Notes under the pieces: model-generated
The model's database searches: none
What the model was told of the DNA's origin: nothing
Seen by the model: only the letters and a program-made list of their open reading frames with translations
Made by a program: the position numbers and the translations under genes
NCBI GenBank assembly: GCA_046314695.1
Contig: JBKDBI010000254.1
Location: 1 to 44,227 of the forward strand
DNA length: 44,227 nt
Reading direction: 5' to 3'
From: Bacteroidota bacterium
GTDB taxonomy: Bacteria > Bacteroidota > Bacteroidia > NS11-12g > UBA955
In this document: positions 14,577 to 42,387 of the stretch, piece after piece
Position numbering within the stretch: the first letter of the stretch is position 1
How the letters are laid out: the number at the start of each line of letters is the position of its first letter

Positions 14577-15196
14577 TACAACACCTCTTCGGTCGTGATT
14601 GACTGGCTAATAACATTCGTTCCCACATAGAAGCGTCCGTAAGCCACAGGCACACCCACGCCTTTACCTAGCCGATTCGTTGCACCAGTAAAAAGGGTAC
14701 TTTGGCGATCTGCTGGATTGTCCCCTTGTTGCAAGTCGCCTACTTTGGGCGTGGGTGTGAATAGCGTCACAATACCCCCTAGAACGGACGTAGCACCCCC
14801 CACAATTAAACCAACGCCGATACTTGCCAATTGAGTACCTGACAAGGTTCCTAAGCCTCCAGTCATAAACGTGAGAGCAATCCCTGCCCCAATTAGTAGC
14901 ACACCTGCAATAATGCCGATAAACTTCTTCCCATAAACGCCTTCCACTGGCACAAGGTGAATCGTATCGACACCATCGGGCAAGCTTACATCAAAGCGTG
15001 AATCTTCTGAAAGCAAACGGCTTCTACCGTCATCCGTTAGACTGAATCGATACCAGCCACGCTTTAACATTTGACGCATCCCTTTAAATGTCCGTAAAAG
15101 AAAGGAAACCACTTGTTGAGCGGTTTCCGCATTTATCCGCAGGGGATTAGGGGAAAAGGTCTTTAATTTTCCGTGAAGCACAACCGATACAAGCAT
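14576..15196 (-). CDS. lambda gpI-like tail assembly protein
   Basis: N-terminus VVLHGKLKTF...LRINAETAQQVVSFL plus a Gly-rich hydrophobic C-terminal half, as in Lambda_tail_I proteins. Synteny supports the call. Confidence 0.8.
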   Translation of the reverse strand: MLVSVVLHGKLKTFSPNPLRINAETAQQVVSFLLRTFKGMRQMLKRGWYRFSLTDDGRSRLLSEDSRFDVSLPDGVDTIHLVPVEGVYGKKFIGIIAGVLLIGAGIALTFMTGGLGTLSGTQLASIGVGLIVGGATSVLGGIVTLFTPTPKVGDLQQGDNPADRQSTLFTGATNRLGKGVGVPVAYGRFYVGTNVISQSITTEEVL

Positions 15197-28007: not shown

Positions 28008-29468
28008 TTAGAATCCTATGCTTATGCCTTGGACGTCGGACTGTCTACGATTTAGTTTAGCATTGATGAACTGTGTTAAGGCGTCCACCATGTCGTCATC
28101 CTTGCGATTTGGAAAGGCAATGGCTTGGTCGATTAAAGAATCCGTAAAGGGATTGTCTAAAAACTTGACGCTCCCTTGATTAAGGTAAATTGTAGAGGCT
28201 TCTGCCCTTGCCTCTTTGGACTCTTTCGGCGTTATGGCAAGCACGTTGTCGATACCATGCTGACGTAATACCCTTATGATAGCGTCACCGTTGGCTTTCT
28301 TTTCAATTATAAGCGAATGAGGGCGGTACTCGTTCATCATCTGCTTGATGCTCGCTAGGGTTGCTAAGAAGTCCATTTGCTTGTTGATGCCATTGACGCA
28401 ATACCACTCGCCCTTGTACCGTGCAAATACGATAATCGCCACGCAGTCGGAAAGCTCCGAATCGCTAAACGTGGCATCTACCGAAAGCAATACCTCTGTC
28501 GCACCATTAATAATGGCGTTGACGTTCTCATCCACAATAGGGAACATCTCCTCTTTGAAGATTTCGCCGTCTGCAACGCTTGGACGCTGTTGTAATTGGC
28601 TGTTGTAGTGCCTCGCCCCTTTTGCCTTTTCCTGTTGCACCCATACTTCACCAAAACGTGCCTCCCATAACAGTTCCCCCTCCTGTGTGCGTGGGTCTTG
28701 AAAACCTAGCGATGAGACTGTCTTAATAGGGTGATTCGAGTCATACAAGGCGGGGAAGCAAAGCACATCATAATGGCGTGCGTAGGCTTCATCTGCTAAG
28801 ATACGCCCTGCGATGTCGTCTTCGTGTAGCCGTTGATGAACCAACACTAAGGGGGTCTTTTCGGCTTTTGTTCCCCTTGTGGTGAAGGTGGAGTCATACC
28901 AAAAAAAACAGGAATCACGCTTTACTTGGCTTCGTGCGTCCTGTGCCTCTAGCGGATCGTCACACAAAAGGAAATCCGCATCCTGACCTGTACCGCCTGA
29001 CGTGGTAATGGGAAGGCGACTCCCCCCTTGCTCATTCTGATAATAGCTCGACCCCCACCGTGTCGCATGGGGCTTGCACACGTCGCCAAATAAACGCTGG
29101 TAGAAGGGGGAGGCAATCAAGTTTCTTGCCTTCACCGCATCCCTTGTTGAAAGATTGTCTTTTGCGGATGCTGACACAAACCGCCGATGAGGTCGCACCG
29201 TCCAGTCCCACGCAGGCATGAACACGTTTACGATGATACTCTTTGCGTGTCGTGGGGGGAGGAATATCATCAAGCGGTTACGCTCTAGCCTGCCCTCTGC
29301 TAAGGCTTGCAAGTGATCGCATATCGCCTCAATGTGCCAGTTCTCCACGAACTCCCCTTGTTGAACCACGACGTGCCAAAATGTCTTTACAAAGAAGTAA
29401 AGGGAGCCTTTGCATAAGCGACGCAAGGCTTCATCATGTGCGAGGCGTAACGCTTGAACGCTTGCCAT
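28008..29468 (-). CDS. terL: terminase large subunit
   Basis: LMIFLPPRHAKS (Walker A-like), LLCDDPLE (Walker B-like) and a C-terminal nuclease-like region. The 486-aa size and the position upstream of the portal gene fit. Confidence 0.85.
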   Translation of the reverse strand: MASVQALRLAHDEALRRLCKGSLYFFVKTFWHVVVQQGEFVENWHIEAICDHLQALAEGRLERNRLMIFLPPRHAKSIIVNVFMPAWDWTVRPHRRFVSASAKDNLSTRDAVKARNLIASPFYQRLFGDVCKPHATRWGSSYYQNEQGGSRLPITTSGGTGQDADFLLCDDPLEAQDARSQVKRDSCFFWYDSTFTTRGTKAEKTPLVLVHQRLHEDDIAGRILADEAYARHYDVLCFPALYDSNHPIKTVSSLGFQDPRTQEGELLWEARFGEVWVQQEKAKGARHYNSQLQQRPSVADGEIFKEEMFPIVDENVNAIINGATEVLLSVDATFSDSELSDCVAIIVFARYKGEWYCVNGINKQMDFLATLASIKQMMNEYRPHSLIIEKKANGDAIIRVLRQHGIDNVLAITPKESKEARAEASTIYLNQGSVKFLDNPFTDSLIDQAIAFPNRKDDDMVDALTQFINAKLNRRQSDVQGISIGF

Positions 29469-30841: not shown

Positions 30842-31269
30842 TATTGACCCTCCAGCTTATCAAGTCCCTTGCCTAGTGCGATGATGTTGTCAAAGTCCAT
30901 GTTTTTAATTTGCTCGACAAGGGCTTCATTAACCATGTGAGTGGTTTCTTGCTTGATCTCGTTTTTGTCGGTTTGACCTAGCCATTGTTTACCTAGCCAT
31001 ATCTGCATTGTGACGTTGCCAGCCTCTGCTGACGTGTACTGCATACGACGGAGGGAAGTTTTACCTTGCCCTGAATATCTTTTATATAGCTCCGAAAAAT
31101 TGACACCACCACGCTCTTTGATATTGCGTTCTAAGGTGTCCTCATCCATATCCATAACACTGCAACATTCAACCTGCGTGCAGTTGATACGAAGCATAGA
31201 GAGGAGCATCTCCCACTCCTTATCGGTTAAATCTTTGCGTGGTCGTCCGACTGGTCTTTTCTCGATCAT
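30841..31269 (-). CDS. terS: terminase small subunit
   Basis: GRPRK..T.KEWE.LL..L...CT..E...VM....DTLERNI ... GNVTMQIWLGKQWLGQTD is the typical HTH-type small terminase pattern. Confidence 0.75.
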   Translation of the reverse strand: MIEKRPVGRPRKDLTDKEWEMLLSMLRINCTQVECCSVMDMDEDTLERNIKERGGVNFSELYKRYSGQGKTSLRRMQYTSAEAGNVTMQIWLGKQWLGQTDKNEIKQETTHMVNEALVEQIKNMDFDNIIALGKGLDKLEGQ

Positions 31270-31762
31270 TTAGCGGTCTCCTCTAGTTTTTTGTAAGTAA
31301 AACAAAATGTCGGTCTATTTGCTGAATGTGTTTTTTTAAATGACTTATCTCTATGCCCGGCTTGAATACCTTTTGAGGTTAATATCCAACATGGCGATTT
31401 TTTCAAAGCATTTGATAATGCGGGTGTCCCTGTTGTGATATTTATCTTATGCGTTTTTGAATAATAGTCTGCCACAAAGTTTAATAGTTTAGTTCCAATT
31501 CCAATACCTTGAAAATCAGGAATAATCACTAAACGATGTATTCTTTTTTGACCAACATATCCAAAACTTTGCATAATGGCACAAAATCCTATAATTTGAT
31601 TTTGATATACGGCTATAAATATATCTGCCACTTTGTTTAATTTATGGTCTAAATAATGAAACTTTTTAAAGGTTTCCCATATTTCAGACCCCCATTTTTT
31701 TTCAATTTGAAAAACATCGAAGTGTATTTTTGCTCTAGTTGGTTTTTCTGCATAAAAAAAAA
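31266..31762 (-). CDS. GNAT acyltransferase domain, readable only as a -1 frame continuation of the upstream ATPase gene
   Basis: Motif A is RLVIIPDFQGIGIGTKLL. The track ORF starts at a GTG (31631) inside the fold. Hand translation shows the same frame is open up to 31778 and encodes the missing N-terminal GNAT strands (IHFDVFQIEKKWGSEIWETFKKFHYLDHKL). This stretch has no ATG. Confidence 0.8.
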
Positions 31763-32350
31763 CTGATTCAGATCGGTATCATAAACCCAATCAGGTTCAA
31801 GCCATTCTTTTACATCGTGATGACACGTTATCGCTATAAATTGCTTGTTTTCTCGTTTAATGGATTTTGAAATAGCTAAACACGTGGTTTGAGCCACTGT
31901 TCTATCTACAACGCTGGTAAACTCATCAAATGCAAACCGTTGTTTTTCTTCAAGCAAAGACTTTGCTAAATCAACACGCATTTTTTCACCGTTAGAAAGA
32001 ACATGATAAGGCTTTAACCAACTAGGTGGACTTGCGAATCCCACCGCACTAAACATATTGGTTATTTTTTGAACATTACAATTTTTAGGCATTTCATCAA
32101 TAATGGCATTTTCACCATATTGTAAGTTTACTACAATATCATCTCCAAAACATTCTTTGGCTATTGTGGTTTTACCTGTCCCTGAACGTCCAACGATTAA
32201 ACCGATGTTCCAATCTTTTCCTTCAATATCAATACTCCCTGTAAAGTTTTGATTTAAGTTTGAATCATCCATTGAAAACATATCTAAAACAGATTGTGTT
32301 TTAAAGCTTTTTTTTAATTCTGTTTTTTTTAGTATGTTGAAACTTGGCAT
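31649..32350 (-). CDS. ABC-type ATPase (zero-frame product, 233 aa)
   Basis: Walker A GRSGTGKTT, ABC signature LSNGEKMRVDLA, Walker B/D-loop FAFDEFTSVVD and H-loop ITCHHD are all present. Confidence 0.85.
   Translation of the reverse strand: MPSFNILKKTELKKSFKTQSVLDMFSMDDSNLNQNFTGSIDIEGKDWNIGLIVGRSGTGKTTIAKECFGDDIVVNLQYGENAIIDEMPKNCNVQKITNMFSAVGFASPPSWLKPYHVLSNGEKMRVDLAKSLLEEKQRFAFDEFTSVVDRTVAQTTCLAISKSIKRENKQFIAITCHHDVKEWLEPDWVYDTDLNQFFFMQKNQLEQKYTSMFFKLKKNGGLKYGKPLKSFII
31754..31762 (-). other. T9 homopolymer / slippery site joining the ATPase and GNAT frames
   Basis: The zero frame reads cag TTT TTT TTT atg. A -1 shift on T TTT TTT reads TAT GCA GAA... in the GNAT frame, and T10 would fuse the frames genetically. 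Confidence 0.6.
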
Positions 32351-32865
32351 GAATAACCCTTTTGTGTCAAATACTCATAAGTATTTTCTTGTTCAATTTC
32401 ATTTTCACATTTTATAATAATTTGATACTTTGTTTCTGAATCGGAAAGATCTGTTTTATCTTCATTTTCATTTTGAAATACATCATCTAAAGCTTTTAAA
32501 TCAAACCCTAACAACTCTAAGTCAAACCCCACGTCATCAAGCTGTGCTAGTTCAAGCTTTAAAAGCTCATCGTCCCACCCTGCGTTTAGTGCGAGCTGAT
32601 TATCCGCTAGGACGTATGCTTTGCGTTGCGTGTCCGTCAAGTGGTCAACCAATACCGTAGGGACTTCTTTTAAGCCTAGTTTTTTAGAGGCTAGCAAGCG
32701 TCCATGTCCTGCGATGACGTTGTTTTTATCGTCTATGATGATTGGGTTAATAAAGCCAAACTCTCGAATGCTTGAGGCAATCTGCGTCACCTGTTCGTCG
32801 CTGTGAGTACGGGCGTTGTTGGCATAAGGGATAAGCTTATCAACTGCCACCTGTTGGTATTTCAT
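32329..32865 (-). CDS. ParB/Srx-like N-terminal domain protein
   Basis: VDKLIPYANNARTHSDEQ...IASSI.EFGF.NPIIID..N.VIAGHGRLLASKKLGL.EVP...V..L.D.Q.KAYVLADNQLA..AGWDDELL. The ATG at 32865 is preceded by GGGGAGGGG. Confidence 0.85.
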   Translation of the reverse strand: MKYQQVAVDKLIPYANNARTHSDEQVTQIASSIREFGFINPIIIDDKNNVIAGHGRLLASKKLGLKEVPTVLVDHLTDTQRKAYVLADNQLALNAGWDDELLKLELAQLDDVGFDLELLGFDLKALDDVFQNENEDKTDLSDSETKYQIIIKCENEIEQENTYEYLTQKGYSCQVSTY

Positions 32866-32922
32866 GCGACCCCTCCCCACATTAGAGTTACTACACACTT
32901 GCATGATGACACATTTAGGTGC

Positions 32923-34313: not shown

Positions 34314-34354
34314 GGTATATCCTTTCCTATCGCTTGGCACATCCAAGCCTCCCG

Positions 34355-34383
34355 ATTATAACCGAAGCCGTCCATTTTCGCAA
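34355..34383 (-). promoter_or_regulatory. near-consensus sigma70 promoter for 33714..34313
   Basis: The minus strand reads TTGCGA (34383-34378), a 17-nt spacer, then TATAAT (34360-34355). Confidence 0.65.
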
Positions 34384-34407
34384 CTTTCGCAGGTTTCGCA
34401 ATCGCAA
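34376..34407. repeat. four direct TTTCGCA (TGCGAAA) repeats at 9-bp spacing, overlapping the -35
   Basis: Copies start at 34376, 34385 and 34394, with a partial copy at 34402. Confidence 0.8.
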
Positions 34408-34423
34408 CGGATGCAAAACCAGT

Positions 34424-34439
34424 TTACTGATGTCAGTAA
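34424..34439. promoter_or_regulatory. 16-bp palindrome TTACTGAtgTCAGTAA (operator-like)
   Basis: Perfect 7-bp inverted arms with a 2-bp spacer, located upstream of the leftward promoter. Confidence 0.5.
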
Positions 34440-34688
34440 CGTGGTAGTGTTACCTACACACCATTTCGTTGACGCCACCGATATGATACTGTTATTTGTT
34501 GCTTGTTGAACCGTTCGGGAATCCCGTACAGTTGCATTGTTAATATGTACGCCTCTCTAAGCTCTAAAAACACACTTCCCCTTGCCTTTATTCATAAATC
34601 GCATTTTCGCACCGTGTGATTGATGCCAGTTGTTGCAAAACGCATTATTTAACTATTGCTCGACTGATTAAAAATTCACAAAGACTGC

Positions 34689-34720
34689 TATATATATTTA
34701 TTTATAAATATATTTTATAA
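34689..34720. other. 32-nt stretch containing only A and T
   Basis: tatatatatttatttataaatatattttataa, directly adjacent to the tandem repeats. Confidence 0.9.
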
Positions 34721-34724
34721 CTTT

Positions 34725-34772
34725 TACCATTACCATTACCATAACTATTACTATTACTATTACTATTACTGC
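34725..34772. repeat. eight tandem hexamers TAC(C/T)AT
   Basis: TACCAT x3, AACTAT, TACTAT x3, TACTGC. Confidence 0.9.
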
Positions 34773-34840
34773 TAGATTTGCTAGGTTTTGCTACAGTTTG
34801 CTTAGCAAAGCTAGCAAGTGCTAGCATTTGCTAGAAAAGC
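34768..34840. repeat. seven (T/A)3GCTAG units phased at 10 bp (iteron-like array)
   Basis: Units start at 34768, 34777, 34787, 34797, 34807, 34817 and 34827. The array includes two GCTAGC palindromes (34810-34815, 34820-34825). Confidence 0.9.
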
Positions 34841-34935
34841 TGAAACTCCTCCAAATGATGTATTCCACAAATAAATGCTTCCCTTTTATAAACAAGTCTG
34901 TTATTATATTCATATCGGTTGAAACAAGTCGACCC

Positions 34936-35037
34936 AATATATTTCCTCAAAACAATTTTGAAACACTTTGACCCGAAAGGGTTAGAGGGAATATATTAAA
35001 TCACCTCTCTACCCAAAGTTCAGAGGTGACTTTTTTT
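34936..35037 (+). ncRNA. candidate structured small RNA or leader ending in an intrinsic terminator
   Basis: A 13-bp stem pairs AATATATTTCCTC (34936-34948) with GAGGGAATATATT (34985-34997), with one G-U pair. It encloses a GAAA-tetraloop hairpin (34969-34984). The terminator hairpin follows. There is no ORF in this stretch. Confidence 0.4.
35001..35037 (+). terminator. rho-independent terminator
   Basis: TCACCTCT (35001-35008) pairs with AGAGGTGA (35022-35029), followed by C and T7 (35031-35037). Confidence 0.7.
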
Positions 35038-35235
35038 GTTCTTTGATTCGTGAATAGAATACTTCCAGTTGATTTTGGCACAAAGTGTACTCAAAGCTCG
35101 GGATTCTGCGTTTGGATCGGGGCTTTGAGGAGAGATAGTGTGTTTGGAAGGGCTTGACGTGACAAGCTAAATCTAACGGAAGAGTAGAAGTGGAGCATCC
35201 CTTGTTTATGAGGCATGGGGTGCGATGCTTTCAAC

Positions 35236-35307
35236 CTTCTCTACCCCTTTTTTAGCAGGTGTTCATTATAGTGACGTACCACCCTGCTATTGAAGGGGGT
35301 AGAGAAG
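35236..35307. repeat. 72-nt nested inverted repeat
   Basis: The outer arms CTTCTCTACCCC (35236-35247) and GGGGTAGAGAAG (35296-35307) are perfect 12-mers. The inner arms are AGCAGGTG (35254-35261) and CACCCTGCT (35280-35288). Confidence 0.8.
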
Positions 35308-35362
35308 ATTTTAGTTACAATAAAGAAAATCGATGCGAAAGTATCGCATGGAGGGATGAATT

Positions 35363-40717: not shown

Positions 40718-41614
40718 ATGGCAAGAAAAGAAAACAGCCGATTCATGCCGTTTTACTTTGATGATTTTGAAGATGCCACCACTCACTTGACCGATAAACA
40801 AAAGTGGATTTATTTTAGAATGATTTGGTGGCAATTTCACAATAAAGCCCCCTTTAAAAGTTCTGAACATGCGAGAAAAGTTTTGTCAGTTTCGAGTCGG
40901 GACTGTGTCATTATCGACACACTATTGACACAGTTCTGTGTCAAAACCGACACAGGATGGTTACAGAATCGCACATTTGAAGAAATTAAAAAAATAGCCT
41001 CAAAGTCAGAGCTAGCAAGGGAATCGGCGAATTGTCGCTGGAAAAATAACGATGCGAACGCATTGCTAGAAGAGAAGAGAAGAGAAGAGAAGAGAAGAGA
41101 AGAGAAAAAAAACTCACAAAAAAAAGAAAATGATGTGAGTGTGAGTGATGATTTTTTGGTTTCTGAAACGCTTGAAAAAAAAGAAAGCGAAAAGCCTCAA
41201 ACCGTGAAAGCTTTTGCCTCCGAAGCTCAAGCCTACGCCGAAGCCCAAGCGAAAGCTTGCGAGGCTGAAACCGCCGTCCTGTACCGCTTTTCGTGGGTTT
41301 TGGCGTGGTTAAGCACCTATCAAACCCCCGAAGAAGCCGTGAGGCGAGGCGTGGGTGAGCCTGAATTGCTGGATCTCTTCAAGCAAGCCGTGGATGCGTC
41401 CATTTCAACCCAAAAAGCCCACAATCCAAGGTATGTTCAAGCCGTTTTTCGCAATAGCGTGGAAGCGTGGACTCCACAGGCACGAAGCAAGCCAATGCAA
41501 AACGGAAAGCCTGTATTTCAAGCTTACACCGACGAGGCGTGGGAGGGGCGAAAAAGCGGTGAGTACATTTTGGATCCTGAAACAAACGAGTTAATTTTCA
41601 AGGAGATTTCTTAG
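40718..41614 (+). CDS. DUF1376 (YdaU-like) replication initiation/primosome-type protein
   Basis: FMPFYFDDFEDATTHLTDKQKWIYFRMIWW matches the DUF1376 N-terminal pattern. GGAGG lies 7 nt before the ATG at 40718, so the track start at 40643 falls inside the terminator. A DnaC-like loader follows. Confidence 0.75.
   Translation: MARKENSRFMPFYFDDFEDATTHLTDKQKWIYFRMIWWQFHNKAPFKSSEHARKVLSVSSRDCVIIDTLLTQFCVKTDTGWLQNRTFEEIKKIASKSELARESANCRWKNNDANALLEEKRREEKRREEKKNSQKKENDVSVSDDFLVSETLEKKESEKPQTVKAFASEAQAYAEAQAKACEAETAVLYRFSWVLAWLSTYQTPEEAVRRGVGEPELLDLFKQAVDASISTQKAHNPRYVQAVFRNSVEAWTPQARSKPMQNGKPVFQAYTDEAWEGRKSGEYILDPETNELIFKEIS
41068..41105 (+). repeat. pentanucleotide tandem repeat (AGAAG)7 inside the replication gene
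   Basis: Seven perfect AGAAG units span 41068-41102, followed by AGA. The tract encodes EEKRREEKRREEK. Confidence 0.9.
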
Positions 41615-42387
41615 TGTTTGAAAAGATTATTGAGGAAATGCCACTTGGTCATAGCCACAAGCATTTTCAGATTGTTGAAGACTGGTGGAATACTGGCATT
41701 GAACCGCCTGAATACAGAGGCAAACTAAACGGCGTTTACAAGTCGAGCAAGCCAAAGGTGGCAATGTGCCAAAAAAGAGCGTTGGCTAAAATGCTTCAAA
41801 TTGCAGATAAACCCAAAGCCCCACGTTCTGATGTGGATATATTTAAGCCCTCCCCTTTTGATGAAGCAAAAGAAGCCTTGAGCTTTTTGGGTATGGGAGG
41901 CATTTATGCGAATGCTTACACAGGGGCGTGTAGGGAGGACACCACGGCGATGAAAGGGCTTCGTGAATGGCAGAACAACCACAAGACCTTTTTGCTTCTC
42001 TGTGGCAAGACAGGGGCAGGGAAAACATTCGCTGGCATCGTCGGTATGGTGGACGGTATGCAACGCATCAACAACACGCTGAACTGGAACGGTGTCTGTG
42101 TGAAGGATCACCAGCTGGCGGATATGGTGGCTTTGACGATGACGAGCGTTGCAGAGAAAAACGAATTGTACAGAAAACCTCACTTGATGATTGATGACTT
42201 ACGGCACGGATCTAAAATAACCGATGCCTTCCAAACGCTTGTGTTGAACATCGTTTCAGAGCGTTATAACAATCGGCGTAAAACAATCATCACAACGAAT
42301 GCCACGCTTCACCAGTTCTTTATGGCGTATGGCGACCAAGTGAGACGACGGATTTTAGAAGACGGCAAAGTAATTGAGTTAATTTGA
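41614..42387 (+). CDS. DnaC/IstB-like AAA+ helicase loader
   Basis: Walker A CGKTGAGKT and Walker B HLMIDDL. The GTG start overlaps the upstream TAG and follows AAGGAG. Confidence 0.8.
   Translation: MFEKIIEEMPLGHSHKHFQIVEDWWNTGIEPPEYRGKLNGVYKSSKPKVAMCQKRALAKMLQIADKPKAPRSDVDIFKPSPFDEAKEALSFLGMGGIYANAYTGACREDTTAMKGLREWQNNHKTFLLLCGKTGAGKTFAGIVGMVDGMQRINNTLNWNGVCVKDHQLADMVALTMTSVAEKNELYRKPHLMIDDLRHGSKITDAFQTLVLNIVSERYNNRRKTIITTNATLHQFFMAYGDQVRRRILEDGKVIELI

Follow-up and report, generated by a model that had tools for sequence, protein, structure and literature searches.

A repeat element in three parts is found in a gene-free gap of contig JBKDBI010000254.1 (GenBank assembly GCA_046314695.1, filed under a Bacteroidota bacterium), a phage sequence whose full 44,227 nucleotides are called the window below. 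The element, an AT-only tract followed by eight tandem hexamers and seven decamers, is real, non-coding and far beyond chance. Comparison among related genomes shows that its repeat array is the part that varies within a non-coding cassette, itself exchangeable and located upstream of the late (packaging and structural) operon. The reading tentatively preferred here, with a confidence well short of even, is that the cassette is an exchangeable nucleoprotein or DNA-unwinding site with an origin-like logic. Judged by the genes that do and do not accompany it, the cassette is tied neither to the ParB and terminase genes nor to the DUF1376 gene of the same genome.

Anatomy of the repeat element

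By direct reading and by script count, the tract spans 32 nt without a single G or C. Elsewhere in the window AT-only runs reach at most 16 nt, and in 300 dinucleotide-preserving shuffles, which serve as the null model, at most 26 nt. The hexamers run in the order TACCAT (three units), AACTAT, TACTAT (three units) and TACTGC, and positions 1 and 4 of the unit are the sole variable sites. The decamer cores start at 34771, 34780, 34790, 34800, 34810, 34820 and 34830, which gives spacings of 9, 10, 10, 10, 10 and 10 bp. Five cores read exactly GCTAG, with GCTAC at 34790 and GCTTAG at 34800, and GCTAGC palindromes are found at 34810 and 34820. GCTAG occurs five times within 70 bp, against three times or fewer in every one of the 300 shuffles, and the period-6 and period-10 arrays were each called independently by Tandem Repeats Finder. 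Along the plus strand, the cassette (approximately 34630–34846) presents an inverted box, the least stable duplex, 15 NAN trinucleotides and phased TTTGCTA / TAGCA-NN-TGCTA boxes (Table 1); the array forms its variable core, flanked leftward by the inverted box.

Several physical properties of the window have their extremes here. Predicted nearest-neighbour stability is lowest on the AT tract at the 30-, 50- and 100-bp scales, about 5 standard deviations off the mean. The next longest G-free run of the plus strand measures 37 nt. The register TAC-CAT-TAC-TAT places the NAN run at 34725–34769, and the next longest such run in the window has 9 trinucleotides. Predicted curvature (wedge model) reaches 64 degrees per 60 bp on the decamers, the top peak of a window with a mean of 15 and a standard deviation of 8, and the predicted maximum also falls on the element in the related loci L140, L184, L107 and L109. 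Folded as single-stranded DNA, the decamers form a hairpin of -17 kcal/mol (z = -2.4). The minimum of the cumulative GC skew and the divergence of the two gene arms are both located at the cassette.

The sole open reading frame (ORF) over the array encodes 41 aa on the minus strand (34702–34827); its ATG is lost in L001 and it is frameshifted in L002. A coding role was rejected, as this ORF is not conserved, TAG occurs in all plus-strand frames, and the plus-strand frame that would read (Thr-Ile)n across the hexamers has a stop at 34705–34707 and no start codon ahead of the repeats. The allelic variants of the hexamers are all synonymous third-position changes in that frame (ACC/ACT, ATT/ATA), and the hexamers of the second carrier group described below likewise read Thr-Ile in one frame; the 3-nt periodicity may be a simple cause. 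The first-pass annotation, which had listed the AT-only tract, eight TAC(C/T)AT units, seven (T/A)3GCTAG units at six consecutive spacings of exactly 10 bp, two GCTAGC palindromes and no credible ORF, is borne out on the tract, the palindromes, the number of units and the lack of an ORF. Its hexamer formula holds exactly in only six units, the GCTAG core in five decamers and the (T/A)3 prefix also in five, and the spacings of exactly 10 bp number five.

Table 1. Coordinates of the cassette, its parts and other features of the window
Feature	Position	Strand	Remarks
Left box TGTTGCAAAAC	34630..34641	.	Inverted TTTTGC(A/T)A-type box across the AT tract; inverted repeat with 34785-34795
Minimal cassette in all five window-lineage alleles	34663..34846	.	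L001 lacks 34503-34662 and matches from ACTGATTAAAAATTCAC onward
AT-only tract	34689..34720	.	Least stable duplex of the window
Hexamers xACyAT (eight)	34725..34772	+	15 consecutive NAN trinucleotides within an 83-nt G-free stretch, 34688-34770
Predicted strong intrinsic bend	34765..34840	.	Wedge model; centre ~34791
Direct-repeat decamers TGCTAGATT / TGCTAGGTTT / TGCTACAGTT	34770..34799	+	Part with variable copy number
Palindromic boxes TTTGCTTAGCAAA, then TAGCA-AG-TGCTA and TAGCA-TT-TGCTA	34797..34836	.	Overlap at a 10-bp period
Relic of the 3' end of a 94-aa ORF (..ETPPNDVFHK-stop)	34847..34874	+	Match to the end of the L097 ORF
Hairpin and T-run, terminator-like, right end of the slot	35003..35040	+	Conserved in L097 and L098
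Competing origin candidate, within the DUF1376 gene and outside the cassette	40905..41135	+	Five GACACA/TGTGTC, then (AGAAG)x7.8 and an A-rich all-purine tract

The cassette in related and unrelated phages

The array is surrounded by a non-coding gap of about 1 kb (34314–35362) between two divergent gene arms. To its left lies the leftward late arm, with genes for a secreted 199-aa protein, a ParB_N protein, an ATPase, TerL (28008–29468), the portal and structural proteins. The rightward early arm includes the DUF1376 gene (40718–41614) and a DnaC-like gene (41614–42387). The cassette is located 375 bp upstream of the first late gene and about 5 kb from the terminase genes.

The relatives of the window lineage are metagenomic sequences with 90–96% nucleotide identity. 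Searches of GenBank phages in near and distant modes gave no match at the DNA level, and the window TerL has only distant relatives, with less than 40% identity. Conservation of the array in related phages was looked for and found in L001, L002, L102/L103 and L171. The decamers number four in L001, seven in the window and L171, nine in L002 and ten in L102/L103; the number differs only by whole 10-bp units, and neighbouring copies are identical (four of TTTGCTACAG, four of TTTGCTAGAG). The AT tract is invariant across alleles save for a TA insertion in two, and the hexamer block has a constant length in the five window-lineage alleles, in which the order of the variant units differs. A query with a 166-aa protein for extending the L002 contig returned no match. 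No DNA-binding fold could be assigned to the 82-aa and 119-aa early products that are found only in array-bearing genomes, and distant homologues of a 201-aa protein (L179, L182) taught nothing about the array.

The right edge of the cassette, at 34846/34847, is set by L097 and L098, which share the flank and lack the cassette. The interval between the shared flanks measures 58 bp in L098 and 506 bp in L097, against 311 bp in the window. L097 2150–2223 corresponds to window 34462–34535, and L097 2730–2942 to window 34843–35037; the interval in L097 holds a promoter-like sequence and a 94-aa ORF (L097:2477–2761, ending in TPPFDVFYK before the stop). The array thus sits in a slot of variable content and length.

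Other carriers were sought by scanning for four TTGCTA at a 10-bp period. The 48 stretches returned mostly reflect the pattern itself, and TTGCTA as a special motif may be doubtful, as these arrays were selected by the search pattern. Among them, the whole layout is found only in a second, unrelated phage group, which we name Family B (L126, L137 and L140, joined later by L162 and L165). Its elements comprise, in order, left boxes (two of TTGCAAAATG and one GTGTTTGCA), a T/A-rich tract, six or nine CACTAT-type hexamers ((C/T)ACTAT; 15 NAN in L140), five to eight decamers (TTTGCTGACG and TTTGCTAACA) and palindromes including TTTGCTTAGCAAA and GCAAATGCTAGCATTTGCTAG, these two being nearly a base-for-base match to the window. 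The 21-mer GCAARTGCTAGCATTTGCTAG and the 13-mer TTTGCTTAGCAAA are common to the window and Family B, and in a collinear alignment the TGTTGCAAAA portion of the left box is identical. In Family B, a late operon (85-aa gene, TerS, TerL) lies on one side of the element and an early operon (SbcC-like, RecT, hydrolase) on the other. The element is 150–400 bp upstream of the 85-aa gene and has the same orientation to the late genes as in the window.

BLAST and phmmer found no protein common to the window and approximately 45 kb of Family B and its relatives. Family B has a G+C content of 33% and Shine-Dalgarno-like sites at 2 of 26 genes, compared with 43 of 46 on the window contig. The Family B RecT gene is similar to those of Cellulophaga phages, and the group is Bacteroidota-like. 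The Shine-Dalgarno contrast, together with the G+C content and the Cellulophaga-like RecT, suggests that the hosts of the window phage and of Family B probably belong to different bacterial phyla.

Two further relatives, L184 and L185, are temperate. The L184 element comprises left boxes, a T-run, five ACACTT units and dispersed TAGCAAACGCTA-type palindromes, in the same order and orientation as the cassette. It stays directly upstream of the late operon (130–160 bp ahead of the first late gene in Family B and L184), with two genes and a terminator between it and the CI/Cro switch, and 9–10 kb from the replication genes (Lin1244_N/DUF6291 and DnaB). In the same locus, five TTGC-N6 units at a 10-bp period, resembling the lambda CII site, occupy the gap that separates the CI-like (Peptidase_S24) gene from the first early gene (L184:3660–3710).

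Partial likenesses were found elsewhere as well. A near-identical stretch of about 37 nt (GCTTAGCAAAGCTAGCAAATGCTAGCATTTGCTAG) is located between two convergent XRE-type genes in L161/L168 (52% G+C), and a three-unit version of the boxes follows an AT-rich tract upstream of a RecT-like operon on a gut Bacteroides-like contig (L159/L167; also L139). On the GC-rich phage contig L141 (5000–5130), about ten GTTGCTA boxes at a 10-bp period lie in a divergent gap, in the orientation opposite to that of the window and 4.4 kb upstream of a TerL gene that is a distant relative of the window TerL; three copies of TTCACAACC are nearby. L160, L163, L164, L166 and L169 form a eukaryote-like repeat family from one assembly (JAAUYI01...), in which the same 21-mer GCAAGTGCTAGCATTTGCTAG is followed by TTGCTAG/CTAGCAA sites; this family is probably a transposon end that matches by chance. 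The cassette was absent from 185,579 species genomes in two scans by pattern, and a literature search on the box sequences returned primer matches only.

The gap contains further sites outside the cassette. Three TTTCGCA at 9-bp spacing (34376–34401) overlap the -35 element of a TTGCGA-17-TATAAT sequence (34355–34383) just upstream of the first late gene; the three units are conserved in L098 and L102, and the promoter-like site is likely to serve the late genes as their proximal promoter, under an operator of its own. Four copies of the motif CTCTACCC/GGGTAGAG are present, at 34979, 35008, 35238 and 35296 (window 34979–35310), and two of them form an 18-nt inverted repeat (35233–35250 / 35293–35310) before the first early gene that resembles an operator or RNA hairpin. 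At window 35069–35173, L097 carries a tyrosine integrase gene (L097:3189–4226), of which the window retains only the sequence just past the stop codon. No integrase was seen anywhere in the window, and its phage may derive, without integrase, from a temperate lineage. The window reproduces, in rotated form, a contig that was assembled as a circle (ENA ERZ27247984 k141_1430288, 44,503 bp) and whose break point is near window position 14819, inside the tail genes.

Origin-like and late-control readings

In the preferred reading, a dimeric box-binding protein would occupy one face of the bent box array, and the resulting complex would help to open the adjoining trinucleotide block and AT tract. 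The logic would be origin-like, with double-strand boxes followed by single-strand repeats and then by an unwinding element. Protein binding, DNA opening and origin activity are what we infer from this layout. The first-pass annotation had read the array as a nucleoprotein site beside a melting tract, which fits the anatomy and the layout kept in Family B; its links to DUF1376, ParB and TerS proteins find no support in the comparison with relatives.

A bacterial unwinding system is composed of DnaA boxes, DnaA-trios with a conserved middle adenine and an AT-rich tract (PMC8287927, PMC10201434). The cassette resembles it in having boxes, at least three NAN trinucleotides and an AT-rich tract in the same order and strand polarity: under the rule taken from those two papers, its 15 NAN are on the plus strand, with the boxes on their 3' side and the AT tract on their 5' side. 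It differs in that its boxes are TTTGCTA/TGCTAGCA rather than DnaA boxes and in its phage rather than chromosomal setting. The hexamers (TACTATTACTAT...) resemble B. subtilis CTACTATTACTTCTACTA. A likeness to DnaD recognition in B. subtilis was downgraded, as Family B lacks the TnnT pattern and the DnaD-strand reading gives the opposite polarity.

Iteron-type origins (lambda ori, plasmid oriV) also share phased direct repeats, bent DNA and an adjoining AT-rich, strand-asymmetric tract with the cassette, where these are the seven decamers and the 32-nt AT-only tract, and their copy number varies too. The cassette differs in that its units are only 10 bp long and merge into overlapping 12-bp palindromes, and in that it is neither linked to nor co-varies with any initiator gene, being dispensable where the same initiator is present. 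L097 encodes a DUF1376 protein with 67% identity and has the flanks of the array, yet no array, and no initiator is common to the window and Family B. The proposal that the array is the origin of the DUF1376/DnaC-like module fails on the evidence of L097, and because the initiator gene holds iterons of its own. Five GACACA/TGTGTC hexamers spaced 10–12 bp apart are found at 40905–40955 within this gene, and about 100 bp past them, at 41068–41135, lies a perfect (AGAAG)x7.8 repeat with an A-rich all-purine tract, which encodes a charged linker. The AGAAG/A-rich part is approximately 100% identical in the DNA of L097, compared with 84–88% for the rest of the gene, and the GACACAG-type repeats are kept there.

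The lambda origin sits inside the initiator gene. By analogy, the candidate site inside the DUF1376 gene is probably the origin of that module, and the first-pass contrast with the lambda origin probably fails for the module's real origin, as the lambda-like arrangement of this genome sits in the DUF1376 gene and not in the cassette. A PDB sequence search with the DUF1376 protein was uninformative. The replication module of L087 differs, with a 764-aa DUF3987/PriCT_1 primase-helicase-like protein; just upstream of it (L087:6440–6900) is a stretch typical of origins, with numerous AAAAATGCAAAA / GTTTGCA boxes as well as TTTTTACA repeats and a purine-rich tract; its box core TTTGCA resembles the TTTGCTA of the window.

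A number of observations weigh against an origin-like or unwinding role. The DUF1376 gene holds its own lambda-like candidate, which is conserved together with the module. Members of the family can do without the cassette, as L098–L101, L086, L087 and L097 share the flanks, terminase or initiator and have no cassette. No initiator or other trans-factor common to both carrier groups was found by phmmer. No DnaA box (TTATCCACA, up to two mismatches) is present within 16 bp of the first trio; the closest match, AAATTCACA at 34671–34679, has three mismatches and is on the wrong side, 45 bp off. The NAN periodicity is incomplete in L184, where the rule is half kept. The decamer count ranges from four to ten, and with such instability no exact number can be important for function. 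Gene orientation fully accounts for the GC-skew minimum. Finally, the placement of the L184 element beside the late operon suits control of a late promoter equally well.

Control of late-operon transcription is nearly as likely an explanation as the origin-like one. Here the phased boxes would bind an activator or repressor, and the curved array with the AT tract would form an upstream activating or UP-like region of a leftward late promoter. The cassette is directly upstream of the first late gene in the same orientation in both phage groups. On this reading it would resemble the phi29 p4 switch and the phased repeats of the TP901-1 late activator; the phi29 p4/p6 and TP901-1 Alt switch regions are likewise non-coding, ahead of the late operon and bent, with sites on one face. 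In L184 the cassette stays with the late operon, apart from the CI/Cro switch, and the TTGC-N6 units of the CI–Cro gap have the same box flavour as its left boxes. Palindromic TGCTAGCA arrays are found in L167, where they lie upstream of an early operon, and in L161, where they adjoin XRE-type genes, and a control array would tolerate changes in copy number. Against late control, no sigma-70-like promoter adjoins the AT tract (candidate leftward promoters lie at 34383..34355 and 34932..34903), no regulator is common to the two carrier groups, and relatives with the same late operon lack the cassette. The cassette is also conserved although promoter recognition differs between the Shine-Dalgarno and non-Shine-Dalgarno hosts, whereas the phi29 and TP901-1 regions are not known to be common to phages whose hosts have different promoter types. 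The lambda CII site consists of TTGC-N6-TTGC straddling a weak -35 element, with a -10 element downstream. In the window, TTGC occurs at 34778, 34788, 34798 and 34828, and no -10 element follows.

The origin-like and late-control readings have a common weakness in that the carriers share no trans-factor. Such a factor could have diverged past detection, could be encoded in unsampled parts of Family B, or could be machinery common to all bacteria. The last possibility leads to an unlikely but novel reading, in which a self-contained cis-module passes between unrelated phages of different phyla, works without a phage-specific protein and is read by universal bacterial machinery. The reader might for instance be an initiator-type AAA+ filament or the helicase-loading apparatus, either of them working at the NAN block and AT tract; it might also be Rho, bound to a G-free transcript.

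Less probable readings and biological significance

It is rather improbable that the array is a hypervariable minisatellite or relic, left by slippage in a non-essential 'moron' slot and now functionless. The varied contents of the slot, with a promoter and a 94-aa ORF in L097, would be in line with this, as would the identical adjacent decamers, which indicate recent slippage, and the ORF remnant at the right edge, which indicates a rearranged slot. A relic would be hard to reconcile with a full layout, from the left box and AT tract to the hexamer type and the 21-nt palindrome, that is collinear in phages of an unrelated group, or with an invariant AT tract and a hexamer block of constant length in alleles whose flanks are about 8% diverged.

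A function at the RNA level, with the transcribed region serving as leader, as Rho-loading (rut-like) tract or as a sponge for protein, is still more doubtful. The plus strand is free of G for 83 nt with regularly spaced C, a terminator-like hairpin is present at 35003–35040, and the promoter-like sequence on the minus strand at 34932..34903 would read through the array. Rho is found widely across bacterial phyla, and this spread could explain function without a phage protein. No conserved plus-strand promoter was found upstream, the Thr-Ile frame cannot be initiated, and the 10-bp unit and predicted curvature suggest double-stranded DNA as the functional form. Rfam gave no match in the region at gathering thresholds and only sub-threshold matches in E-value mode. 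The best of these, the Thr operon leader (RF00506; 23.2 bits against a cut-off of 55), was rejected, as the match is due to the ACCATT repeats and the frame is untranslatable.

A terminase recognition site of the cosB or pac type is very unlikely. The largest family in the TTGCTA scan comprises the lactococcal 936-type phages (Skunavirus), with 4–15 TTGCTAAATC units located 50–125 nt from the left cos end and upstream of terS (L112 and approximately 20 loci; NC_049406.1 1–272). These repeats are described only as direct repeats beside putative terminase binding sites (PMC6105707), and a terminase role has been proposed for the array beside cos. The 936 array resembles that of the window in its 10-bp TTGCTA unit, its copy number varying by isolate and its place just before the late/packaging operon, and the Family B cassette is upstream of the 85-aa gene followed by TerS. 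The AT-only tract and hexamer block are found only in the cassette, however, and the 936 array is near a defined cos and terS, whereas the cassette is about 5 kb from the terminase genes and independent of terminase type. The window terminase is a Terminase_6C, while a 92% identical copy of the whole gap 34246–35377 in L102/L103 lies beside a Terminase_3, an HTH_28 small subunit and other structural genes. Conversely, the array is absent from L087, whose TerL is 99% identical, and from L086 and L098–L101. The earlier link to TerS and pac/cos sites finds no support in the same loci.

Least likely of all is a partition centromere of the parC/parS-array type, to which a small centromere-binding protein would attach. 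Tandem 7–11-bp repeats with a cooperative dimer filament occur in R1 parC, pSK41 parC and the omega heptads, arrays of 10–11-bp direct repeats being typical of type II and type Ib centromeres, and genes for ParB_N (191 aa) and a Walker-type, ABC/SMC-like ATPase (233 aa, phrog_11143) lie about 2 kb away, at 31649–32904. The array has no linked partition NTPase or centromere-binding gene, no ParA, ParM or TubZ gene was found, and there is no sign of a plasmid lifestyle. The ParB_N/ATPase pair (about 30950–32870 in the comparison) is missing from L001, L002 and L102/L103, which keep the array, and the proposed ParB link is thereby lost. The pair is an unrelated insertion, which may be an accessory (defence or counter-defence) cassette; the closest relatives have about 360 bp in its place, and L099 has a ParB_N-methyltransferase fusion there. 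By these genomic comparisons, the cassette is evidently not the iteron set of the DUF1376 initiator, a ParB centromere or a terminase site.

The non-coding control DNA of uncultivated phages is almost unannotated, and the cassette provides a defined and recognisable example with an unusual set of properties: its layout is kept across phages without detectable common proteins, it is exchangeable as a block, and one of its sub-arrays is hypervariable. Under either the origin-like or the late-control reading, the likely origin of the DUF1376 module is relocated to the inside of that gene. If the cassette is a late-gene switch, a widespread box-binding factor would be implied. If it is an origin or unwinding module, such elements would move independently of initiator genes, and automatic calls that equate an AT-rich tract plus repeats with the ori of nearby replication genes would be unsafe. 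Should it be read by universal bacterial machinery, it would represent an undescribed class of portable element for replication origin or control.

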